Below are positions 3,841 through 59,693 of a stretch of 64,000 nt of DNA, piece after piece. The stretch comes from Phapecoctavirus DIJ07P1, in the sequence record OZ035743.1; one strand, 5' to 3'. Made by a program: the position numbers and the translations under genes. The notes beneath the pieces are model-generated. The model did not search any database. It saw nothing but the letters and a program-made list of their open reading frames with translations, and had not been told where the DNA came from. Numbering within the stretch: position 1 is the stretch's first letter; every line of letters starts with the position of its first letter.

Positions 3841-3912
3841 CGCAAGAAACTATTCCGGCGGATTGGGGATCGAAGTTCATTACAGGTTTGAAATATTACG
3901 ACTAATAAAAAA

Positions 3913-3932
3913 GGGAACCCGCAAAGGTTCCC
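3913..3932. terminator. Bidirectional terminator between convergent genes
   Basis: gggaacc-cgcaaa-ggttccc hairpin flanked by A-run upstream and T-run downstream. Confidence 0.7.
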
Positions 3933-3968
3933 TTTTCTTTTATAAAAACTCTTTATAAATCAATAAGA

Positions 3969-4856
3969 TCAGAACGGAATATCATCGTCGAAGTCCATTG
4001 GAGGTTCTTCTTGATTACTTGGAGTTGGTTCTGGTTGTGGTTCAGGTTTCTTAACTTCTTTCTTCTCTTCTTTCTTAGGCTGTTCTGCGGAACCACGAAT
4101 GGCAGCAGCAACTTTATCAGACAGAGCCAGAACTTTACGAGCAGAGTCGATCAGATCTTCTACAGATACAGTCTTAATGGTATGGTCTTTACAAGCATTG
4201 AGGATAGCGTGACCAACAGATGCCCCAAGATCATAATCATTAATATCAACACCACGAGATTCAGCAATTTCCGATTTCAGTGTGACAGTTGCAGATTGAA
4301 CAACCCCAGCGATATCGAAAGCATCGCCTTTAACACCATTACGAATCAGTTCCAGTGCACCATTTACTGCGTGACCAGTTTCCAGACCTACAGTATCACG
4401 TTTTTTATAGGACTGCTTAGGAGCAGCATCGTTGGAACCTTTATTACCAGAAGATTTGTTAGACTTCTGAACACCATCGGTAGACAATACTGTAATACGA
4501 GATTTTTTAGTATTGTAGTAAGTTTTACCGCCTTTATTATCAACGCGATCAATATCAATACTTACTTCTACACCTTTTTCAATAGTGATCCAATTATCAC
4601 CTTCTTTGACTTGCAGGTTTTCATAACCTTCTTTCAGTTCAATGTCACCAAGAGAAATCCAAACACCTTTCTCATCTGGTTTAGCACCTTTCTCTTTCAG
4701 AACAAGAGAGGCTCGGTGAGTTGAAACAATCGTTTTTCCTTCCCAATGAAAAGTTTTAGGTTCAGCGAATTTATCCAGTTTAACGTAGTCTACGATACCA
4801 GTTGCATAAGTTACGGTTTTGCCTTTACGATCAGTTTCAGTATTAATTACGGACAT
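3969..4856 (-). CDS. ssb: Single-stranded DNA-binding protein
   Basis: 295 aa; C-terminus PMDFDDDIPF matches the acidic SSB tail (DDDIPF); Gly/Lys-rich linker before tail. Confidence 0.75.
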   Translation of the reverse strand: MSVINTETDRKGKTVTYATGIVDYVKLDKFAEPKTFHWEGKTIVSTHRASLVLKEKGAKPDEKGVWISLGDIELKEGYENLQVKEGDNWITIEKGVEVSIDIDRVDNKGGKTYYNTKKSRITVLSTDGVQKSNKSSGNKGSNDAAPKQSYKKRDTVGLETGHAVNGALELIRNGVKGDAFDIAGVVQSATVTLKSEIAESRGVDINDYDLGASVGHAILNACKDHTIKTVSVEDLIDSARKVLALSDKVAAAIRGSAEQPKKEEKKEVKKPEPQPEPTPSNQEEPPMDFDDDIPF

Positions 4857-4872
4857 TATTATCTCCTCTACA

Positions 4873-5265
4873 TTACATTAATTTTGCACAGAAAGAGCGG
4901 AGTCTTTCCATATCATCTTGCTCTAACAGGTATTTACCTTTACCTATTCCAACTCCAATTTCACCATTAGGAAAATGAACTATTTGCACTGGGAAACCTC
5001 CGAGTTTAATTGTGGCAGCTTTGCCTTCTTCGTCTATAACGTTTCGGATTGTATCTTGCAGTGAAATGAATTCTTTGTTTGTAACAGTGGTTTCAATTAT
5101 TTCAGATGTTTCGACACGAGCAGTTAGCTTCTTGTTTCCACCTTGAATAACCAAAATTTGAAAATAAAAAGAGTTGTCAAGACCTACAACATTTTTCTCA
5201 ACTAGTGTCAAACTGGTGTAGTTTCCATAAACAGTTTCAACAGCTATCTTAGAACGTTCAGTCAT
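4873..5265 (-). CDS. Hypothetical protein
   Basis: 130-aa ORF in compact minus-strand operon; no motif recognised. Confidence 0.55.
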   Translation of the reverse strand: MTERSKIAVETVYGNYTSLTLVEKNVVGLDNSFYFQILVIQGGNKKLTARVETSEIIETTVTNKEFISLQDTIRNVIDEEGKAATIKLGGFPVQIVHFPNGEIGVGIGKGKYLLEQDDMERLRSFCAKLM

Positions 5266-5310: not shown

Positions 5311-5904
5311 TTACCAAGGAATATCATCTTCTTCCAATCTGGTATCTACTTGAGGTGGACGTGGAACCTTAACCTCTTTCACAAAACGAAGATATGGGAA
5401 ACGTGTAGCAATTTTAATAACGTGTTTGGCATCTTCTCTAACATCTTTGTGCAAGAAGCAGATCCCTGTTTCCAAAGTTGTTTCAAAATCTTTAGAGTAA
5501 TAACAATCCTTCCCATCAAATGCAGCCTGGCAGATGGACAGATCAAACTCATTTAGAAAGGTTGTCATTACGCTTGGTTCCATAATCATAAGGTTGCAAA
5601 GCTGACCATCACGTTCAAACTCAAAAACGTGTTTAAGACCAGTAACACCCTCGTAGTTATCCGAAGCTTCTTTGTTTCCTAATTTACGAACATTAGTTCC
5701 CATCAAAGCAGATGCAATCAATTCTTGTATTTGCTCTTCTGATCGATGTGCAGGAAGAGACGTGTAAAAATCCAGATCACGTCCAGCAATATCAAGAATA
5801 CGCCAATCACGAACAGCGCCGCCAGCCAAGACAGAATTAGGATCAGCAATCTTTAATACGGTAAGAATTTCTTTGGCAATATTGATTTGTTTTGATTTAG
5901 TCAT
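5311..5904 (-). CDS. Pol-beta-type nucleotidyltransferase (CCA-adding-enzyme head-domain-like)
   Basis: 197 aa; LAGGAVRDW...DLD matches the GGxVRD plus DxD signature of tRNA nucleotidyltransferase head domains. Confidence 0.55.
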   Translation of the reverse strand: MTKSKQINIAKEILTVLKIADPNSVLAGGAVRDWRILDIAGRDLDFYTSLPAHRSEEQIQELIASALMGTNVRKLGNKEASDNYEGVTGLKHVFEFERDGQLCNLMIMEPSVMTTFLNEFDLSICQAAFDGKDCYYSKDFETTLETGICFLHKDVREDAKHVIKIATRFPYLRFVKEVKVPRPPQVDTRLEEDDIPW

Positions 5905-6115
5905 GGATACGCCCCACAGTTACTTTTACAACATCGTCCATATTAATCTCATCCCCCAAGACCTCAATAACACCTTCCTCATAAAGTCGAGCACATTCTT
6001 CCCACACTTCAGCTTCCGTCATTCCACCTGCAATCTTATTTGCAAGACCTTTAATAACATCTTCATTTTGTTCATCAACAAGAATTGAAACATTAAAGCT
6101 CACTAATTTACGCAT
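5897..6115 (-). CDS. Hypothetical protein
   Basis: 72-aa ORF, 8-nt overlap with upstream gene; RBS present. Confidence 0.5.
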   Translation of the reverse strand: MRKLVSFNVSILVDEQNEDVIKGLANKIAGGMTEAEVWEECARLYEEGVIEVLGDEINMDDVVKVTVGRIHD

Positions 6116-6532: not shown

Positions 6533-9130
6533 CTAGTGACAGGACGCCCAGGAGTTACCCACATCATATCCGGCAGTAAGCTGAACATTAAGATTGTAAA
6601 ATTCTCCAGCCTTAGTAACAGCTAAAGCAGCAAGTTCACCTGCCCGACTATAGGCTGTAAACCATCCACCTTTGGGAGATTCATGAATGTTAGCCCAAAT
6701 TTGCCCTGTCTCTTTTTCCTTATTATGCTTCCATTCTTCAACTTTAGCAAGGCATTCTTTATCAATTTTCTTTTGTTCTTCAGGATCGTCTACTTTCTTC
6801 CAACCTAATGATTCAGGTGAAAACCATTTAAATTCTACAAGGTTACGAGAAACTTCAAGCTGGGCTTCATCGTGATATGCAATCATTTGTTGCACGAAGT
6901 CTTTATTCTTCCAGTCATCTTTAAAGAAGTCAACACTTAGCCCTTCTTCTTCGATCATGTCGTCATAAATAACCATTGCACGTTTAGCACAGATAACCCC
7001 ACCACTTTGGAACAGAGAGTTAAGAATCGCGTGAGCAGAACGAGTAGGAACCTTACGACCGTCAATACCCAAAACATACTGTTTACCAGTCTTAACCCAG
7101 AAATCGTTTAAACGTTCTTTAAGACGCGCCAGTGGGAATGCAGCTTCCCAGAAAGCATCGAACACCAGTTGCCCTGTGTATTTATCGCTACCAATTGTTT
7201 TAGCAACCTTGTCTGCTTGTGCACCATAAGTGATCCCGTATTTAACAGATTTCGCCGGACTACGTTCAAATTTACGCCCAATAGTATCTGTAATACGTTT
7301 TGCCATCATGGTATGAACATCGTTAGGCTTCTCTAACAAGAGAGCGTTACAGTATTCATGAGGCTCCGGTTCGTAGCGCCAACAATAATGCGACTCAATC
7401 TTTGCTTCCAAAGAGTCGAAGTCATAACCGATCTGGAAGTATTTAGGAACTTCTACACCAAACAAGTTACGCATCTCCCATCCAAACAAAGATGTGACAC
7501 GAGGGATATTGGCTACAGACCTATGCTTCATACGAGAGGTTGCAGCATCACATGTAGCGGCTGGTGTAGGAATACGCCCATCCGCCCTTACTGCGGCTAA
7601 GAAACCTTTATCGTATTCTTGATCTTCTTCATCTTCTTCCCAATCAGCACCGCCACCTAAAATAGAGTTCCTACGATGCTTATACGTTAAGTATTCTACA
7701 ATCTGAGTAGCATAAGGAAATTTCTCACCCAAAGCTTGCAGGTTAGGACAAATTTCTTTTTCCTGGCCTTTGGTAAAACATGGGTTAGTCAATACTTTAA
7801 GACCGCGACCTTTACCTTTTGCTATACGCTCTTGAATCTTCCTTTCCAAGGTTTCCGGTGTGCACTCCAGATGATCACAACGATCCTGACAAAAATTAGA
7901 AGATAGAGTTTGCTCAACGTAAGCTCGAATACCTTTCTGAAGTTCTTCCTCGCTCTTTTTAATCTTGGTGCCAGATTTAAGAGTCAAGTCTTTATCTTTA
8001 TATTCAGACGGTACCCAACCTAATCCTACAAGCCAGTTTTTAATATGGGTTGTATCGTTCAATGTTGCAGGGATGTTAGGATCACATAGAGGTTCATCTG
8101 CTGCAACTGGCAGTTTCCACTCTTTCCCCAACATAACTAACCACCAATCGCCATCCCTCTCTTCCAAATGACCATCATGTTTCTTAGCAAAATTAATCAT
8201 ATGGTTAGTTGGCTCTAAGTTCTTTTTAATTTGCAACTTAGGTGGAATAAAAGCCTTAAGATAACCTTTTGTTGCTGGTTTAGGTGGCAAAATAGGCTCA
8301 ACGAGTAAACGAAGACGCTCCATTTCTGCATCCAAAAAAGCAAGGTTCTCTTCTGCTTGCTTCATGTTAAAAGCAAACCCACGGTGTTCCTGGCGTGTAA
8401 TAATGTCTGCTACACGTTGTTCAAGTTCAAATGGACCTTCCCATTTATCATAATCGCCCCATTCTTCCATAAGGTAATTATATACGCTCGTATTGGCTTT
8501 GTTGTCATAGATACAGTAATAAAGCATATCCGCAGCAAAAGTCTTAAATCGATCTTCTTCTGGAATCTCTTTACGGAAATCTATTTTTACATCACCACCT
8601 GCCTTTCGAGAAAGTGCTGCCAAACTATGTCCTGATTTGCCCTCAATCTTTCGATCTGGGTTTAACACTTTACTCAAAATCAAGGAGTCAATAAGTTTTA
8701 CCTTATTTTTGCCCCACGTATTATATTTAACACTGTAATCTAAGCCATAAAACAGTTTTGTAGCCAACCAGTCATAGTTGATACCGTTGTGAGCCACAGC
8801 CATTTCAACTAGATATTCAGGCTTATCTTTAAAATAACCTTCATGATTAATAAAATCTGGGAAATCTTTTAGTTGAAAATGTGTGTAATCTTGCGCCACA
8901 TATTCTTTAAGAACATATGTGTATTTACCATCTGACTCTTCATAAGGACGCCCATCAAAGATGTATTTAGGGCCATCGTGGAAAGCTACTATTTCTCCTG
9001 TTTCATGGTTCTCTAAGACAATACAGTGCATTTGAAATGTGTCTTTGAGACGATAAGGACTAGCTAAATAATCGATAGTGTCATTATTCAACAATCCGTT
9101 TGCTTCAATATCCCATGTAAACTTACTCAC
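6533..9130 (-). CDS. DNA polymerase, family A, with N-terminal 3'-5' exonuclease
   Basis: 865 aa; DIEANGL (Exo I); GYDFDSLEAKI (motif A); RSPAKSVKYGITYGAQ (motif B); YHDEAQLEV (motif C). Confidence 0.9.
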   Translation of the reverse strand: MSKFTWDIEANGLLNNDTIDYLASPYRLKDTFQMHCIVLENHETGEIVAFHDGPKYIFDGRPYEESDGKYTYVLKEYVAQDYTHFQLKDFPDFINHEGYFKDKPEYLVEMAVAHNGINYDWLATKLFYGLDYSVKYNTWGKNKVKLIDSLILSKVLNPDRKIEGKSGHSLAALSRKAGGDVKIDFRKEIPEEDRFKTFAADMLYYCIYDNKANTSVYNYLMEEWGDYDKWEGPFELEQRVADIITRQEHRGFAFNMKQAEENLAFLDAEMERLRLLVEPILPPKPATKGYLKAFIPPKLQIKKNLEPTNHMINFAKKHDGHLEERDGDWWLVMLGKEWKLPVAADEPLCDPNIPATLNDTTHIKNWLVGLGWVPSEYKDKDLTLKSGTKIKKSEEELQKGIRAYVEQTLSSNFCQDRCDHLECTPETLERKIQERIAKGKGRGLKVLTNPCFTKGQEKEICPNLQALGEKFPYATQIVEYLTYKHRRNSILGGGADWEEDEEDQEYDKGFLAAVRADGRIPTPAATCDAATSRMKHRSVANIPRVTSLFGWEMRNLFGVEVPKYFQIGYDFDSLEAKIESHYCWRYEPEPHEYCNALLLEKPNDVHTMMAKRITDTIGRKFERSPAKSVKYGITYGAQADKVAKTIGSDKYTGQLVFDAFWEAAFPLARLKERLNDFWVKTGKQYVLGIDGRKVPTRSAHAILNSLFQSGGVICAKRAMVIYDDMIEEEGLSVDFFKDDWKNKDFVQQMIAYHDEAQLEVSRNLVEFKWFSPESLGWKKVDDPEEQKKIDKECLAKVEEWKHNKEKETGQIWANIHESPKGGWFTAYSRAGELAALAVTKAGEFYNLNVQLTAGYDVGNSWASCH

Positions 9131-10440: not shown

Positions 10441-10459
10441 TAAAAGGGCCGAAGCCCTT
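10441..10459 (-). terminator. Terminator after primase-helicase
   Basis: gggcttcggccc hairpin followed by TTTTATT on minus strand. Confidence 0.6.
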
Positions 10460-12236
10460 AATAGTTGCTATCCGTAGGCAAATTAGCAGGATTGTTGAAA
10501 TACTGCTCTTTGTCATGCAGAGTTGCAGTTCTAATATCATAGTAAAACTGCCCTGCTGGACCAGTCTCTGAGAACTCACGGTTTTTTAGGATAAAGCAAT
10601 GAGTCGTATTTCGTTCTACAGGGTCTTCAGCGGCTTTATCTCGTTCCAAAGCCAAGGTAATACCAGCACCTTTAGCCAAGAAACTACTACCCATTGCATC
10701 GTCCTCTGTTAAGTGTTCATTGCCACCATTAGCCGATTTCTTAACGTGTGAGATGACGATAATAGTTATAGCATACTCTTTCATGATGCGCTTCAACCAT
10801 GTTGCTAACTCTTCCTGGGCTTGAACATCCATACCAGAAAGCAAATCAGAATAAGGGTCGATAACAAGAATTGTTACTCCAAAATAGATGATCATCTCCA
10901 AAACTTTTTCTTTGATAGACTCCACATCTGCTCCACGATCATCACACACATAAAAACGTGGTGATCCATCTTCTCTTTCGTAAAAATCTAGAATTTTTTC
11001 TTTATTCTCTTCCAGGATTTGAAATTTCTCTTCCGGTGTTTTCCTATGTAGAGGAATGTGCAGGAAAGAGGACAACAGGTTACGAGAATATTTCTTATAG
11101 GTTGCTTCCAATGACAGAATACCGAGGGTATGTTCTGGGTGTGCAACGATAATATGTTTGGTGATCTCGTTCACCATCAAAGTTTTACCGATACTGGTCT
11201 TTGCCAGGATAACTGTAATCTCTTCCTCTACTAAACCACCACCCAGCATATTTGCAGCAACACGCATAAAAGGAGGCAAGGTAATCATCTTGGATTCCAA
11301 GCATTCTAATGCAGCTTCATACAAGACATTAGAAGCATAAACACCTGCTGGGGTGTATAGACGAGCACTCCAAAAAGCTTTTACGAAATCTTTTGCACGA
11401 CCTTCTTCCAGATACTGATTGGCATCCTTAAGATCCATCTGCATACGGTAGACTTTGTTACGAGGCAGCACCTTAACAATATTTTCAAATGCCTCATTAC
11501 CCGCTTTGTCATTATCCATGCAAACAATAATCTTCTTAAATTTTTCAAAGAAAGGATATTGTGCCTGAACTTGTTTATACATACTGGTTTCACCAGTTGT
11601 GCCACTAACTACTGCTGGAAGTTCATATTTGTTGTCCAAGTTTTCAGACAGCATCTGATAAGCTGCCAGAGCATCGTGTTCACCACCTGTAATTACAACA
11701 GTATGAGAACGGTCTGCAAAACGAATTTGTCCAAAAAGATCTACATCTTTACCTACTTGACCAATAGGTTTACTGAAATCTTTAGGATGAATACGACGCT
11801 TAAAACCAACCAATTCTTTACCGATAGTAGTCGGATATAAACAACTTTCTACTACCATCTGATCCCCTTCCTGACGGTATTCATAACGAACACCATAGAA
11901 AGATGAAACTTTTTCTTTAATACCTCGATAACCACGTGGGTTGGTTGATGTTTCTTGAACAATTTTACGATGAATCTGTTTATTAAATTCCGAACCCACA
12001 ATCTCCTCCTCTTCTTCTAAAACTTCACCATTTTCTCGTAACCATTCTACGCTAGGAATAGTGTATTCACACGCAAAGCACTTAGCACCTTTATGCTCTC
12101 CATTAGAATCTAATCCATAAACCATCAGGTTATTACGAGAGCGATCCTTGCCATTTTTCATGCAGCGCGGACAACCTGTATGCCCTTCCTTGCTAAGATC
12201 AACATCAAATCCATATTTAGTTATAATGTGCGACAC
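10458..12236 (-). CDS. Primase-helicase (T7 gp4-like: zinc ribbon, TOPRIM, DnaB-like helicase)
   Basis: 592 aa; N-terminal CPRC...CFAC zinc ribbon; central VVITGGEHDALAAYQ; C-terminal Walker A AKTSIGKT. Confidence 0.85.
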   Translation of the reverse strand: MSHIITKYGFDVDLSKEGHTGCPRCMKNGKDRSRNNLMVYGLDSNGEHKGAKCFACEYTIPSVEWLRENGEVLEEEEEIVGSEFNKQIHRKIVQETSTNPRGYRGIKEKVSSFYGVRYEYRQEGDQMVVESCLYPTTIGKELVGFKRRIHPKDFSKPIGQVGKDVDLFGQIRFADRSHTVVITGGEHDALAAYQMLSENLDNKYELPAVVSGTTGETSMYKQVQAQYPFFEKFKKIIVCMDNDKAGNEAFENIVKVLPRNKVYRMQMDLKDANQYLEEGRAKDFVKAFWSARLYTPAGVYASNVLYEAALECLESKMITLPPFMRVAANMLGGGLVEEEITVILAKTSIGKTLMVNEITKHIIVAHPEHTLGILSLEATYKKYSRNLLSSFLHIPLHRKTPEEKFQILEENKEKILDFYEREDGSPRFYVCDDRGADVESIKEKVLEMIIYFGVTILVIDPYSDLLSGMDVQAQEELATWLKRIMKEYAITIIVISHVKKSANGGNEHLTEDDAMGSSFLAKGAGITLALERDKAAEDPVERNTTHCFILKNREFSETGPAGQFYYDIRTATLHDKEQYFNNPANLPTDSNY

Positions 12237-51136: not shown

Positions 51137-51490
51137 ATGAAAGCACAAAATGCAATTAAAGAGTACATCCTTGCCGCTATCGATTTTAATGATTACGGTA
51201 TTACAACCGAAAAAGAGAAGATCGCGGAATTGATGCGCCGTTTTAATTCCGAGTACTGGTACCCTGATAACCAATCACGTTTTAATTATAGTATTGTTAA
51301 AGCACTTGCATCATGGTTACAAGGTTTGCCATCAGATATCAATATCGCTTTCGAATATTGGGAAATTGATCGCTTGTTAACATCCTGGGGATACATTAAA
51401 GAGAATAGCAGCGATGATAAAATCCAACGAGAAAGGGAAAATTATTGGCTTTATATTGCAGGCGTGATCCTTGCTTGCTCTTATGAATGA
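51137..51490 (+). CDS. Hypothetical protein
   Basis: 117-aa ORF. Confidence 0.6.
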   Translation: MKAQNAIKEYILAAIDFNDYGITTEKEKIAELMRRFNSEYWYPDNQSRFNYSIVKALASWLQGLPSDINIAFEYWEIDRLLTSWGYIKENSSDDKIQRERENYWLYIAGVILACSYE

Positions 51491-51496
51491 TAAACC

Positions 51497-51549
51497 TTGA
51501 CAATTTTACAAAACAGTTTAAATTAACAATATAGCGGCAATGGTGCCGC
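51497..51549 (+). promoter_or_regulatory. Promoter-leader cassette 13
   Basis: TTGACA-16-TAAATT...ataGCGGCAATGGTGCCGC. Confidence 0.6.
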
Positions 51550-51568
51550 TCATATGAAGAGGAAACAA

Positions 51569-51715
51569 AATGAATACATCTAATCGCGCAGAAAAAATTC
51601 AATCTTCCAAGATCCGCAAGGCCTGGAACGAGGAAGTGATCCGCAAAGGCGACAAGCGTAATAAAACAAAGCGCGGGAAGAGTGACAAATATAATTGGAT
51701 GGATTTAGAGGATTA
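51569..51715 (+). CDS. 48-aa Lys/Arg-rich basic protein (below ORF-track cutoff)
   Basis: MNTSNRAEKIQSSKIRKAWNEEVIRKGDKRNKTKRGKSDKYNWMDLED, codons checked manually; RBS GAGGAAA. Confidence 0.5.
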
Positions 51716-51722
51716 ACATAAC

Positions 51723-51749
51723 AAGGGCGCATCAAGCGCCCTTTCTTTT
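51723..51749 (+). terminator. Rho-independent terminator (copy 1 of a repeated terminator)
   Basis: agggcgcatcaagcgccct followed by ttcttttt. Confidence 0.75.
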
Positions 51750-51771
51750 TACATGTAGAGGATAAACAAAA

Positions 51772-51957
51772 ATGACTTTAAACGAGCTTAAAACAGCCTA
51801 CAACGCAACATTAAAAATAGCCGTGCGTTACCGTGATGCGTATGGTTTTATCGCGCAGGGCGTGATCCTGGGCTTTTCTGACGATGGTTTGATCTATGTT
51901 GATGCACATCACAACAAGGTTAAACCTGAAAACGTCATTAGCATAAAATATCTTTAA
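51772..51957 (+). CDS. Hypothetical small protein
   Basis: 61-aa ORF, RBS AGAGGA. Confidence 0.55.
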   Translation: MTLNELKTAYNATLKIAVRYRDAYGFIAQGVILGFSDDGLIYVDAHHNKVKPENVISIKYL

Positions 51958-51963
51958 AAACGG

Positions 51964-52020
51964 TTGACAGCATAACCAAGTATGATAAGATGTATCACGT
52001 AGGGCGGGAATAGTTCCCGA
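51964..52020 (+). promoter_or_regulatory. Promoter-leader cassette 14
   Basis: TTGACA-16-TAAGAT-gtatcacgt-aGGGCGGGAATAGTTCCCG. Confidence 0.7.
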
Positions 52021-52042
52021 CCACATAAAAGAGAAAAACATT

Positions 52043-52255
52043 ATGACCACTATCACAACAAAACAAGAAAAAATTATTACAGACATTGCCGCAGTAGCCG
52101 CTATTGCTATTATTGGTACCTACTATGACACCGCGCGACCTTCCTCCTTACATGAGATCGCCGCCGTTGCATCAGTTGGCGTACTGTTTTACGTTGGTAA
52201 ACGCTATTTATCACCAATGATTAACAAGCTGACACCGTGGAAAAATAAAGGTTGA
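52043..52255 (+). CDS. Small membrane protein
   Basis: 70 aa, hydrophobic core. Confidence 0.55.
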   Translation: MTTITTKQEKIITDIAAVAAIAIIGTYYDTARPSSLHEIAAVASVGVLFYVGKRYLSPMINKLTPWKNKG

Positions 52256-52261
52256 TCCTGT

Positions 52262-52316
52262 TTTATATTGTGTTATAGTTATCGTGTAGGGCGGCAATGG
52301 TGCCGCGCCCCTTTGA
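52262..52316 (+). promoter_or_regulatory. Promoter-leader cassette 15
   Basis: TTGATC-16-TATAGT-tatcgtgt-aGGGCGGCAATGGTGCCGC. Confidence 0.6.
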
Positions 52317-52326
52317 GGATGCAATC

Positions 52327-52611
52327 ATGCGTAAAGCTAACACCGTGCTAATGTTTTCCCTGATTAATAATGCCGCTTACTTGTCCAACATGACGCAGGA
52401 GGGTAACACATTAACGGCAACATTCACCAATAAGCTTGACCGAGTGATCATAATCTCACTGAAAACAGTTAGTAAAGGCTTTTACTCGTTAGCTTATCAT
52501 TGTATCACTGACACCGACGAGACAAGCCAGGACTATAGCGCCCCTTTCCCTGAATCAATGGCACGGGAGATCATCGCCGCCGTTGTAAATGATGGTTTGT
52601 TTACTGCATAA
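52327..52611 (+). CDS. Hypothetical protein
   Basis: Start set at MRKANT after GAGGATG RBS. Confidence 0.55.
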   Translation: MRKANTVLMFSLINNAAYLSNMTQEGNTLTATFTNKLDRVIIISLKTVSKGFYSLAYHCITDTDETSQDYSAPFPESMAREIIAAVVNDGLFTA

Positions 52612-52627
52612 AATAATTCAGAAAAGG

Positions 52628-52686
52628 CTTGCAATAATTTTCAGACCGTGTATATTTAATTCATAGGGCGGCGGGAATAGTTCCCT
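52628..52686 (+). promoter_or_regulatory. Promoter-leader cassette 16 (degenerate)
   Basis: TTGCAA...TATATT...catagGGCGGCGGGAATAGTTCCC. Confidence 0.55.
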
Positions 52687-52708
52687 AAGCAAACGAGAGG
52701 ATTACACG

Positions 52709-52828
52709 ATGAGCAAGTATACAGTAGAATACACGGTAGAAAATCCGGCAGTATCCGAAGGTAAAAAGATGACATTTGCCATCAGTATAATCGCTTTCGT
52801 TATCACTATCTTATCAATCATCTTATAA
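52709..52828 (+). CDS. 39-aa hydrophobic peptide
   Basis: MSKYTVEYTVENPAVSEGKKMTFAISIIAFVITILSIIL read manually; RBS GAGAGGA. Confidence 0.4.
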   Translation: MSKYTVEYTVENPAVSEGKKMTFAISIIAFVITILSIIL

Positions 52829-52966
52829 GGTGCGTACTATGAAAACAACAGACATTATCAAAGAGATCGCCCTTGCCGCTGACGTTGAGATCGAGGAAGT
52901 GATCGCGCTCAACCTTACAGAAAACGATCTACTCAATCTATGAAGCGTTATAATTGACAACAAAAC

Positions 52967-57274: not shown

Positions 57275-58060
57275 ATGTTTAAAGTAGGTTTTGTTTATAA
57301 TTTCAAATCGGAAGATACCAAAAAGAATTTTGGTAAAGCCAGTATTCGTAACGCTTTCTTTGTAGGTTGCATTCAAGATAGCAAGTTTAAAGTTTTAGAT
57401 GTTGATTTTCTAGGTTCTGTGTCAAAGGTGAAGGTATTAGACACAAATAAGATCATCGAAGGTAGTTCTGGGCTTTTTCCTGAAGGCTATAAGCTTGTAA
57501 GTTGTATAGATTATAGTCGTTTTGAAGAACATCCTCCTGAAGATTATGAGGATTCTCCTACAGGAGGTTGTGTCTTTGTAGAAGGTGGTGTCTATAAGTT
57601 TGCAAGTGAACAAGATCGTAAGCTTTTCGCCAATTATATTGACGGCGGACAAACGACAAACAATGTAAACCGAAAAATTTCCGATCTTATTGGCGATGAT
57701 CCTTTCGTGATCACAAAGATGGTTGGACAAGATGTAACAGCAATCCGTAGGCTTGTATGTAATACAAATCATGTAGCAGGTGAAGGTTGGTTCAAAGAAG
57801 CTTGTGCACTGCTAATCAAAAGCGATAACCCTTACTTTAAAAATATTAAAGATGCTGTTGAGCCTAAACAAGAGGAACCCGCAGCGAATTTTAAACACTA
57901 TGCTATTGTTAAAGGTATGAATGTCCAACTGGTGTCACATTCTTACGAAGAGATCGCCACAGAAGCAAAAAAGATGAAGGAAGAATACCCAATTTCTACT
58001 GTTGAGATCTATGAGCGTATTGGTGTTGTTAGTATTGAGCCTACTGCGGTAATAAAATAA
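57275..58060 (+). CDS. MFK-family tandem paralogue 3 (duplicated N-terminal module)
   Basis: 261 aa; MFKVGFVYNFKS at N-terminus and internal GGVYKFASEQDRKLF repeat; C-terminal TVEIYERIGV. Confidence 0.65.
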   Translation: MFKVGFVYNFKSEDTKKNFGKASIRNAFFVGCIQDSKFKVLDVDFLGSVSKVKVLDTNKIIEGSSGLFPEGYKLVSCIDYSRFEEHPPEDYEDSPTGGCVFVEGGVYKFASEQDRKLFANYIDGGQTTNNVNRKISDLIGDDPFVITKMVGQDVTAIRRLVCNTNHVAGEGWFKEACALLIKSDNPYFKNIKDAVEPKQEEPAANFKHYAIVKGMNVQLVSHSYEEIATEAKKMKEEYPISTVEIYERIGVVSIEPTAVIK

Positions 58061-58069
58061 GGAGCTATT

Positions 58070-58507
58070 ATGTTCAAAGCTAATGCTGTTTACTGTTTCA
58101 AAAGTAAAGCTGCCTGTGAAGCTTTCTCTGTGATCTCGGATGAAAATTTCAAAATGGCAGCTTTGATTGAAGGGTCTTGTTTCCGCGTCGAAGATGTTAG
58201 TGAATCAGGGTCTGTTTGCTCATTGACTTTATTGGACAGCGGGGATATTATTGAAGCTGGACAGTATCCTTTCAGAAGTTGGGAGATATTGTTAGCTCGC
58301 GGAGAGCGTAACTTTTTTATGTGTGTGTCTGCGGGGGAAGTTGTGAAAGAAACTAATGATGTTTCTGTTTACAATTCTGAATTTATAAGTTATAGTGAGT
58401 ATCAACATCTGGAAGGCATTGTTGGTCACTTGTTATCTCTGATTGACGTTGAATGTGACCTGCCTGAATCATTGAAAGAAGAATTGAAAGCATTAGATCT
58501 GTTATAA
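58070..58507 (+). CDS. MFK-family tandem paralogue 4 (divergent)
   Basis: MFKANAVYCFKSKAA... Confidence 0.6.
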   Translation: MFKANAVYCFKSKAACEAFSVISDENFKMAALIEGSCFRVEDVSESGSVCSLTLLDSGDIIEAGQYPFRSWEILLARGERNFFMCVSAGEVVKETNDVSVYNSEFISYSEYQHLEGIVGHLLSLIDVECDLPESLKEELKALDLL

Positions 58508-58534
58508 TGTTTCGCACAACGAAAGGAGAATAAG

Positions 58535-58834
58535 ATGAATCTGACCGAACAGTTACGCCGTATTGCAAAAGAAGCTTCCTTCAACTTCCCTGTTGAAGAA
58601 GTGATCGAGACATGTTTTGCTGAAGCACGAGCGGGAAACTCTTCAAGAAATTTCACGCCATCTGATTTTGGTCTGGATAATTCCCCTACCCACCCAGGGG
58701 CGATCTACAATCAGGTGAAGTGGATGGATGAAGCAGTAGCAATTCTTCGTGAGCGTGGGCTTATTGTTTATAAAGAAATGGATTTGAACGGGGCATACGA
58801 GTGGATCACTATTGATTGGTCGGAGGTGAAATAA
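58535..58834 (+). CDS. Hypothetical protein
   Basis: 99-aa ORF, RBS AAGGAG. Confidence 0.6.
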   Translation: MNLTEQLRRIAKEASFNFPVEEVIETCFAEARAGNSSRNFTPSDFGLDNSPTHPGAIYNQVKWMDEAVAILRERGLIVYKEMDLNGAYEWITIDWSEVK

Positions 58835-59043
58835 TGGTTACTATCACATTGACAGTTACACAAGAGCAAGCAGAAGAATTGCGTGATGCTGTGGCATACA
58901 TGGGACGTTCTTATTATATGCCTCATAAGTCTCAAGATGTTTTTGCTACAGCCGTTGAGAAAGCTCTAAACAAATATCGAGAAACTCATGCCGTTCCTAA
59001 AGTATCAGCAGAAGAGTTTGGCACTTGGCACGAAGTTCACTAA
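58834..59043 (+). CDS. Hypothetical small protein
   Basis: Start set at MVTITLTV after GGAGGTG RBS. Confidence 0.5.
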   Translation: MVTITLTVTQEQAEELRDAVAYMGRSYYMPHKSQDVFATAVEKALNKYRETHAVPKVSAEEFGTWHEVH

Positions 59044-59053
59044 GGAGGTTTCG

Positions 59054-59287
59054 ATGAAAGGTAACAAGATGAAAGTTAATCAGGTACCGAGCGCATACAC
59101 TCTGTGGCTTGCGCGAGCGTTAAACCAGACGATCAAAAATCCTAAGAAGCCAATGAAGAGTGGGAAGAAGTTTATGTCTAAGGGCAAAACAACCTTTGGC
59201 TTCACTCGTATGTCTGTTAAGATGAAAAGGCTGGGGTATAAGCCAAACTACGCTCGTTACCCTTCCGAATACAACTGGTTTGACTAA
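59054..59287 (+). CDS. Hypothetical basic protein
   Basis: Start set at MKGNKMKV after AAGGAGG RBS. Confidence 0.55.
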   Translation: MKGNKMKVNQVPSAYTLWLARALNQTIKNPKKPMKSGKKFMSKGKTTFGFTRMSVKMKRLGYKPNYARYPSEYNWFD

Positions 59288-59302
59288 AGAGGAGAACAAA
59301 AC

Positions 59303-59521
59303 ATGAAAACATCTATTCGCGTGAAACATGATCCGAACAGCAGTTACCCATACGCGTATGTTGAACGTCATGAAGGAGACTATTACACCATAAAACGTAA
59401 AGTCCCAACTGATACAGGGTTTAACTTTGATGTTATTGCGCTGGATGATCAAGGTGTTGATAATCTGGTGAATGCATTACTCGCATTGAAGGAAGTACGA
59501 TATGAAAATCAGACTAATTGA
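59303..59521 (+). CDS. Hypothetical small protein
   Basis: 72-aa ORF, RBS GAGGAG. Confidence 0.55.
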   Translation: MKTSIRVKHDPNSSYPYAYVERHEGDYYTIKRKVPTDTGFNFDVIALDDQGVDNLVNALLALKEVRYENQTN

Positions 59522-59693
59522 AAAGGGTGATACCATCTTCGAAACCCGTAAAGGTGAAATCACAGAGATTCCAGAAGAAAGATCAACAATCCTTGTCGAT
59601 GGTGTTTTGAAATATTGCTGTAGTGTCTATAAATCTTACGAGAAGGATCAGTATGGCGATCCAGAAATCTGGTTTGTAGGAGATGTGTATTAA
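59502..59693 (+). CDS. Hypothetical small protein
   Basis: 63-aa ORF. Confidence 0.5.
   Translation: MKIRLIEKGDTIFETRKGEITEIPEERSTILVDGVLKYCCSVYKSYEKDQYGDPEIWFVGDVY

Follow-up and report, generated by a model that had tools for sequence, protein, structure and literature searches.

What does a phage protein that looks like half of a CCA-adding enzyme do in a replication operon? The window analyzed here is one stretch of Phapecoctavirus DNA of 64,000 nucleotides. It is 99.8% identical to Escherichia phage ESCO13 across the region that encodes this 197-aa protein, hereafter called NTase (Table 1). GenBank records label the gene either 'nucleotidyltransferase' or 'putative tRNA nucleotidyl transferase / poly(A) polymerase'. 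A sequence-only reading of the locus had likewise proposed a minimal tRNA nucleotidyltransferase that might repair tRNA 3' ends; as the records already carry this label, the idea is an existing annotation and not a new observation. We therefore asked how much of the label fits the protein.

Table 1. Features of the NTase locus, with positions in the window.
Feature	Position	Strand	Basis or remark
Bidirectional terminator-like hairpin, closing the operon after the SSB gene	3909..3936		sequence
SSB-like protein, last gene of the operon	3969..4856	minus	last 12 residues, EPPMDFDDDIPF, identical to E. coli SSB
130-aa protein without functional assignment, PHROG 16560	4873..5265	minus	directly downstream of NTase; co-conserved in 5 lineages
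NTase CDS, stand-alone class II-type, predicted head plus first neck helix, 197 aa	5311..5904	minus	ORF list
Acidic C-terminal tip EEDDIPW, aa 191-197, disordered	5314..5334	minus	pLDDT <50
First neck helix REDAKHVIKIATRFP, aa 156-170, at the position of motif D	5395..5439	minus	alignment and model
Degenerate motif B position, EFDLSICQ, aa 119-126	5527..5550	minus	global profile alignment, low confidence
Motif A part 2, catalytic DLD, aa 43-45	5770..5778	minus	D43 and D45 invariant in 54 relatives
Motif A part 1, GGAVRD, aa 28-33	5806..5823	minus	G28, G29 and R32 invariant, D33 near-invariant, in 54 relatives
72-aa ORF, stop overlapping the NTase start	5897..6115	minus	ORF list
Family-A DNA polymerase	6533..9130	minus	0.6 kb upstream of NTase, same operon; PolA cluster confirmed by Pfam in relatives
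Primase-helicase, T7 gp4-like	10458..12236	minus	same operon; Toprim_2 + DnaB_C in relatives

NTase belongs to a large and conserved phage family

The 197-aa protein with GGAVRD and DLD that the sequence-only reading had described was found as claimed, on the minus strand, with an ATG at 5904 and a stop codon at 5311-5313; it shares 8 nt with the upstream ORF (5897-6115), the start of NTase lying over the stop of that ORF. The gene is kept in at least 64 Phapecoctavirus genomes. Comparison with one metagenomic relative revealed 25 synonymous and 3 non-synonymous differences (dN/dS = 0.03), which indicates a real, expressed gene under strong purifying selection.

Word-indexed searches retrieved 58 relatives of NTase, all of 170-227 aa, and an exhaustive HMMER search retrieved 1,046 representatives of 50%-identity clusters at E <= 1e-3 (335 at E <= 1e-10), nearly all of them 170-250 aa long. 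In an alignment of 54 sequences reaching down to ~23% identity, residues A27, G28, G29, R32, W34, D43 and D45 were invariant, and D33, F46, Y47, Y84, F120, C125, F140, K164, F169 and P170, among others, were near-invariant. Judged by this alignment, the GGAVRD/DLD motif is not a chance match.

Among the bacterial and archaeal genomes of 185,579 species (one genome each), only three copies of the family were found, all on MAG contigs, and one of these was 100% identical to NTase, evidently on a mis-binned phage contig. With just these three copies, the family is essentially phage-restricted. A bacterial or prophage origin and a defence-island context were rejected, given the three MAG contigs and the absence of any match between NTase and the PADLOC defence and toxin models. 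The best matches in a viral structure library were other phage proteins of ~170-230 aa that are likewise uncharacterized. A scan of relatives with an N-terminal extension for fused domains yielded no Pfam match, no family member was found in phage KP34, and ICP1 was seen to carry only a truncated copy of 137 aa. The literature searched held no biochemical characterization of any family member, and published treatments consist of annotation and modeling only (PMC7693777; PMC7291057).

The predicted fold is that of a class II head domain

An AlphaFold2 model of NTase built on the 54 relatives reached a pLDDT of 87.5 and a pTM of 0.81. Only the last seven residues were disordered, with the fold running through a single neck helix to about residue 178. 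When the model was compared with the PDB using Foldseek, each of the top 34 matches was either E. coli PAP I or a class II enzyme that adds CC, A or CCA, with E-values from 2e-5 and TM-scores of ~0.55 on the query and ~0.3 on the targets, which are 340-520 aa long. The closest solved folds are those of the class II tRNA nucleotidyltransferases (PF01743 head plus PF12627; PDB 1miv, 3h37, 3wfo, 4wby and 6q52), and NTase has the class II head-domain fold whether it is compared with CCA-adding enzymes or with PAP I.

The sequence-only reading had suggested structure prediction and comparison with class II enzymes as a check, and had named placement in an unrelated nucleotidyltransferase family as grounds against it. 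The class II CCA and PAP I folds proved to be the nearest, and neither the model nor Foldseek placed NTase in an unrelated family. Both of its structural claims hold: the head-domain signature includes residues that are invariant in the 54-sequence alignment and lies in a predicted class II fold, and a body or tail is lacking both in the model and, to judge by their lengths, in nearly all of the ~1,000 relatives. On the model, NTase is a class II-type head with the first neck helix and nothing further.

Two other kinds of protein were compared with it. Streptococcus pneumoniae NP_344798.1 (PDB 2la3, 191 aa) is a bacterial stand-alone 'CCA-adding enzyme head domain'; it has no detectable sequence relationship with NTase and is itself uncharacterized, so no function can be transferred from it. 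MenT and AbiEii (DUF1814) toxins were clearly less like NTase than the class II enzymes were; they are products of bacterial toxin-antitoxin or defence genes, whereas NTase has no antitoxin partner or PADLOC match and is encoded in a replication module.

Sequence profiles were then used alongside the model. The Pfam head model PF01743 (PolyA_pol head) scored 15.5 bits against NTase, below its gathering cut-off of 23 (E = 0.023), over aa 26-74 only, and gave weak matches in 37/54 relatives, with E-values up to 0.1 and a best value of 4.3e-5. The NCBIfam CCA model TIGR02692 gave a meaningless score of 12.2 bits versus 438.8, and a single-sequence search of NTase against the PDB yielded chance matches only. 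PHROG 10174 matched aa 1-128 (E = 3.3e-63) and PHROG 1614 aa 4-184 (E = 2.9e-11), which places most of NTase in the phage short nucleotidyltransferase family that these models describe. The profile built from the relatives of NTase reached CCA-adding enzymes via motif A only. Similarly, when the 186-sequence family was aligned by hhalign with an enterobacterial Cca profile, a narrow one made only of Cca sequences of at least 68% identity, the profile-profile similarity was significant for aa 24-71 only, that is, only across motif A. The global profile alignment with Cca is of low confidence and served as a guide only; it agrees with the order of secondary structures in the model. A Pfam label, PF26128.2, which was precomputed on ~20 relatives, was neither reproduced nor identified with the copy of Pfam used.

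Specificity features of CCA-adding enzymes and PAP

Class II enzymes have a head-neck-body-tail architecture with motifs A-E (PMC2910056; PMC11784652). The RRD in motif B reads the ribose (PMC2910056), the enzyme's own template for CTP and ATP is the EDxxR of motif D, and A addition depends on a flexible loop, 10-12 residues long, that lies between the BxA element and motif B (both PMC2910056; PMC11784652). Neither the D nor the R of EDxxR could be exchanged when A or CCA addition was selected for (PMC11784652). PAPs are recognized by a signature between motif A and the flexible loop, [LIV][LIV]G[RK][RK]F.[LIV]h[HQL][LIV] (PMC2910056).

These features were counted in the NTase family (n = 186) and in a control set of Cca sequences (n = 107). 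The motif A pattern (GGxxRD then DxD) was present in 166/186 family members and 83/107 Cca sequences, and the GGAVRD and DLD of NTase align to those of CCA-adding enzymes and PAP I. RRD was found in 0/186 members of the family versus 107/107 of the controls, and EDxxR (as [ED]D..R) followed by R..RF in 0/186 versus 106/107. The PAP-specific signature was absent from both sets (0/186 and 0/107).

In the low-confidence global alignment, EFDLSICQ of NTase stands opposite RRDLTINA of Cca, with F-x-x-S-I-C as the family consensus, and the neck helix REDAKHVIKIATRF stands opposite EDPLRVLRVARF of Cca. This helix carries a family motif of its own, [HY]-[IV]-x-K-[IM]-x-x-[KR]-F-P, without EDxxR: E157 and D158 vary even in the close clade, and H161 or Y occupies the place where the templating R is expected. 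Instead of a flexible loop, the model has only ~7 residues between strand 101-108 and helix 116-119, and the low-confidence alignment has a deletion there. Beyond the one neck helix, no neck, body or tail tRNA-binding domains were seen in the model of the 197-aa protein, and the relatives are of 170-250 aa.

By sequence, then, motif A is the sole defining CCA-enzyme motif that survives in NTase. Because several defining features were looked for and not found, we filed the protein neither as a CCA-adding enzyme, which it is very unlikely to be, nor as a PAP. Compared with the class II tRNA nucleotidyltransferases, NTase is half the size, lacks body, tail, flexible loop, RRD and EDxxR, scores below the PF01743 threshold and has its gene in a replication operon and not beside tRNA genes. 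It shares the head fold of E. coli PAP I (PcnB; PDB 3aqk and 3aql), but differs from it in lacking the PAP signature, RRD, and the neck/body and C-terminal RNA-binding regions (PMC2910056). With RRD lost, canonical reading of the ribose is gone, which makes the use of dNTPs possible. A low pI was considered as an argument against RNA binding and dropped, as the head of E. coli Cca is equally acidic (pI 5.3 vs 5.4).

A role in tRNA repair is not favored by the genomic context

The proposal of tRNA repair, which the sequence-only reading shares with the GenBank label, would have NTase act in the repair or maturation of tRNA 3' ends: on tRNAs of host or phage that nucleases have trimmed, it would restore the CCA in full or in part. 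The nearest solved folds, those of CCA-, CC- and A-adding enzymes, speak for such a role, as does a motif A that closely matches that of CCA-type enzymes. ESCO13 also appears to invest in both tRNA supply and repair, with ten tRNA genes and an Rnl1-like RNA ligase that adjoins a phosphoesterase, plausibly a tRNA-repair pair, and full-length CCA-adding enzymes are known in jumbo phages (PMC7824862).

Against tRNA repair stand the absence of RRD and EDxxR from 186/186 relatives, the irreplaceable D and R of EDxxR (PMC11784652), the loop required for A addition (PMC2910056) and the lack of a body or tail with which NTase might hold a tRNA. No tRNA gene was found in the window. The ten tRNA genes of ESCO13 lie 39 kb from NTase and encode their 3'-CCA in 10/10 cases, which led us to reject the idea that the phage tRNAs need CCA addition, and the host already supplies its own Cca. 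Among 80 related viral loci, just 6 had a tRNA gene within 8 kb, and replication genes were commoner neighbors (see below).

The ligase pair of ESCO13 is located ~45 kb from NTase, so that the two do not adjoin. RlaP nucleotidyltransferases are defined by their association with RNA ligases (PMC7824862); this distance argues against RlaP membership, as does the survey of the 80 loci, in which no RNA-ligase cluster was identified among the recurrent neighbors. Taken together, we consider tRNA 3'-end repair a very unlikely function of NTase. The sequence-only reading therefore stands as to enzyme superfamily and minimal architecture, which fold and motif A support, and lacks support as to tRNA repair, for which the required class II elements are missing; its alternative, that NTase modifies some other RNA or a nucleotide, may still hold.

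NTase genes usually lie among replication genes

In the window, the minus-strand operon runs from the primase-helicase through two ORFs, the family-A DNA polymerase and three small ORFs to NTase, and then through the 130-aa ORF and the SSB-like protein to the bidirectional terminator. To see how general this arrangement is, we surveyed the 80 related viral loci, which represent 47 NTase lineages at 70% identity, and clustered all neighboring ORFs without prior labels. The two most recurrent neighbor clusters, each present in 34/47 lineages, were identified through Pfam as DNA_pol_A and as Toprim_2 + DnaB_C, the latter being a T7 gp4-type primase-helicase; ThyX and an ATP-dependent DNA ligase were the next most recurrent.

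PolA and/or the primase-helicase was found within 8 kb of NTase in 38/47 lineages, and PolA within 2 kb in 23/47, on the same strand in the loci listed and with a gene order that varies. As a rough estimate for genome sizes of 40-150 kb, chance alone would put a gene this near to the polymerase in ~3-10% of cases. In phi92 NTase directly follows DNA polymerase I, and in the podovirus fHe-Kpn01 a remote relative, gp22, directly follows the DNA polymerase. No replication gene was seen within 8 kb in 9/47 lineages, and the relatives P0011 and P0021 are located among small early genes. On these data, a link of NTase with replication is probable. Anti-host accessory genes, too, are found in the slots next to T7-type replication genes, and the synteny may reflect only a shared middle-gene timing or the inheritance of a module.

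A replisome context would also suit a catalytically dead protein that serves the phage replisome as a structural subunit or adaptor, and the truncated copy that is all ICP1 keeps is consistent with this. However, both catalytic aspartates and the GG..RD loop have stayed invariant even between very divergent relatives, which is unexpected for a scaffold, and we regard a dead subunit as highly improbable.

Phapecoctavirus NTases end in an SSB-like tip

NTase ends in ...RLEEDDIPW, a disordered acidic tail that carries D-D-[IL]-P-aromatic at its free end. DDIPW is kept in relatives down to 59% identity, and the linker that precedes it varies in length and sequence. Conserved end, varying linker and disorder together are, as far as the sequences tell, the behavior of a short linear interaction motif.

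Within the window, a D-I-P-[FW] C-terminus is found only in NTase and in the SSB-like protein, whose gene is the second downstream of NTase. The SSB-like protein has only its last 12 residues in common with E. coli SSB, which ends in ...PPMDFDDDIPF, and these are identical. Proteins that partner SSB dock on the conserved hexapeptide DDDIPF (PMC5872125). The NTase tail resembles this SSB-Ct peptide in being disordered and acidic and in ending freely in D-D-I-P-aromatic; it differs in sitting on an enzyme and not on an SSB, in ending with W and not F, and in being limited to one clade. By sequence, the tip is a putative docking peptide of the SSB-Ct kind. The gp2.5 and gp4 proteins of T7, with which the tip was also compared, have acidic, aromatic-ended tails as well.

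DDIPW is confined to the Phapecoctavirus-like clade and is absent from phi92 and most lineages. Acidic tails ending in an aromatic residue were found in 27/187 relatives or, counted by lineage, in 7/47, and were thereby ruled out as a family-wide trait.

An alternative is that the acceptor is not a polynucleotide; a mimic of the SSB tip could target SSB-binding proteins. NTase would then nucleotidylylate a protein, a small molecule or a nucleotide signal in counter-defence or host takeover, for example a host SSB-interacting protein reached via DDIPW, or a defence effector. The loss of every nucleic-acid-specific class II feature and the restriction of the family to phages agree with this. Yet the nearest folds are, by a clear margin, enzymes of polynucleotide 3' ends, no defence-related model matches NTase, and beyond the replication genes there is no conserved partner gene that would hint at a target. 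We therefore think such an acceptor unlikely.

Proposed activity of NTase

From sequence and model, NTase is predicted to be an active, divergent class II-type nucleotidyltransferase with a CCA/PAP-type head, belonging to a family of ~200-aa phage proteins; its two-aspartate metal site and its GG..RD NTP-binding loop are intact. Such an enzyme would transfer a nucleotide, without a template, to the 3'-OH of a nucleic-acid end that is not recognized as tRNA. As RRD is absent, it may not distinguish NTPs from dNTPs. It might act during replication, on nascent DNA, primers or other replication-associated 3' ends, and in Phapecoctaviruses it could be brought to its site by the docking of its SSB-tip-like tail on proteins that bind the SSB C-terminus. 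The acceptor in this scheme is one that we infer solely from the predicted fold and the gene context.

We tentatively favor this joint reading, in which a template-independent transferase acts in replication on a nucleic-acid 3'-OH other than that of tRNA and is recruited by its tail in this clade, although on present evidence it may well be wrong in one or more parts. Its most specific form would be a replisome-accessory terminal (deoxy)nucleotidyl transferase for the 3' ends of nascent DNA, of primers or of the genome, tethered to the fork by an SSB-like tip in Phapecoctaviruses, in effect a phage 'TdT' on a CCA-enzyme scaffold. This would be a kind of enzyme not described before, and we hold it to be improbable. 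To our knowledge, all class II enzymes of known function act on RNA 3' ends, and a DNA or primer acceptor would be without precedent.

The same point favors an RNA acceptor: all characterized class II enzymes act on RNA 3' ends, and NTase could tail RNA 3' ends without specificity, whether as a minimal poly(A)/poly(N) polymerase or by blocking the acceptor ends of tRNAs in the manner of MenT. Host RNAs would thereby be destabilized or inactivated, or phage transcripts regulated. Support comes from fHe-Kpn01 gp22, which is toxic when expressed in E. coli (PMC7291057). This protein is one of several short proteins of Autographiviridae and other phages (fHe-Kpn01 gp22, Pectobacterium PP47/Q19, LKD16 and Caulobacter Cd1; PHROG 1614) that are annotated 'tRNA nucleotidyltransferase'. 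Like NTase, these BFVD matches are phage-encoded, biochemically uncharacterized and of ~170-220 aa, and have a class II-like head only. Unlike NTase, they score much better against CCA-adding enzymes (for gp22, an HHpred probability of 99.8%; PMC7291057) and lack the RDW / S-I-C / K-F-P signature and the DDIPW tip; their sequence relation to NTase is remote.

With 16.9 bits to the family HMM, gp22 is itself too remote a relative for its toxicity to be transferred to NTase with confidence. An RNA-tailing enzyme would also have to do without the PAP signature (0/186), a C-terminal RNA-binding region (PMC2910056) and RRD ribose recognition. NTase finds no match among the PADLOC defence and toxin models, and an RNA-tailing role leaves the replisome synteny and the SSB-like tip without explanation. 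RNA tailing is thus possible, but in our view rather doubtful.

Implications for phage annotation and biology

Hundreds of phage genomes have come to carry the label 'tRNA nucleotidyltransferase / poly(A) polymerase', copied both onto the NTase family and onto its look-alikes; in the strict sense this label is almost certainly wrong. NTase itself, a truncated and divergent member of a known enzyme class, is already catalogued, though probably under the wrong name. The family concerned is large (~1,000 clusters at 50% identity), phage-restricted and strongly constrained, and the Phapecoctaviruses, whose NTases end in the SSB-tip-like tail, are coliphages of a therapeutic type. If NTase were an RNA-tailing toxin, this would account for the reported toxicity of the related phage protein. 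If instead NTase acted on the ends of DNA or primers, or on a host protein that it finds by mimicking the SSB tip, a new activity in host takeover or phage replication would come to light, and biotechnology might gain a new, compact tailing enzyme.

Variant Architectures of NTase Relatives

The NTase copy of Vibrio phage ICP1 (ORF223) is shortened, stopping shortly past the S-x-C motif, and its absent C-terminal third is not encoded in any frame downstream. In the further ICP1 records among those listed, the tblastn matches ended at the identical query residue (127). ORF223 is either a head-only version of the NTase or a gene in decay. One clade of relatives (P0118, P0131, P0115, P0171; loci L039 and L045-L057) carries N-terminal extensions of 100-210 aa, for which no Pfam match was found, and these may be a fused domain for substrate binding or targeting. 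P0009, P0015, P0016 and ~17 more relatives bear the precomputed Pfam label PF26128.2; this family was never recovered by a local Pfam-A scan, with E relaxed up to 10.

Coordinates of the features described
Feature	Location	Strand	Remarks
Shortened NTase copy, 137 aa	L007 4956-5369		Vibrio phage ICP1 ORF223
130-aa protein, PHROG 16560	window 4873-5265	-	directly downstream of NTase
Phage SSB-like protein, 295 aa	window 3969-4856	-	compared with E. coli SSB
Ten phage tRNA genes	L091 14538-16550		ESCO13 57,537-59,549
Rnl1-like RNA ligase adjoining phosphoesterase	L091 8442-9927		ESCO13 51,441-52,926

Genomic Settings of the Relatives

On two large phage contigs encoding distant relatives (L003 and L004), the NTase is surrounded by small early genes and not by genes for replication. 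Both contigs also encode TerC, TelA and vWA-TerF-like proteins together with a dTDP-sugar pathway, to which L004 adds NAPRTase and PRPP synthetase. At another locus (L022 3742-7245), an intein bearing an HNH endonuclease splits the family-A DNA polymerase adjoining the NTase. In 4 lineages, a protein with four CapR-homology domains is encoded closely upstream of the NTase (L058 6410-7657).

A 100%-identical NTase copy was found on a 43.5-kb contig (JAEZZU010000064.1, L093) of a 'Proteobacteria bacterium' MAG; this is evidently a Phapecoctavirus contig that was placed in a bacterial MAG bin.

tRNA Genes and a Possible tRNA-Repair Pair in ESCO13

The tRNA set of Escherichia phage ESCO13 (Met, Arg, Ser, Asn, Thr, Gly, Gln, Pro, Ile, Met) has the 3'-CCA encoded in the gene in every case (10/10). 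The Rnl1-like RNA ligase and its phosphoesterase neighbor possibly form a tRNA-repair pair, and lie distant from the NTase, beyond the window.

Downstream Neighbors of the NTase

A promoter-like site (window 5303-5274) precedes the gene for the 130-aa protein. This protein and the NTase were found together in 5 lineages, and it could be a partner.

The final 12 residues of the SSB-like protein, EPPMDFDDDIPF, are identical to those of E. coli SSB, and outside them no similarity between the two proteins was detectable. The phage has equipped its own ssDNA-binding protein with a copy of the interaction tip of the host SSB.
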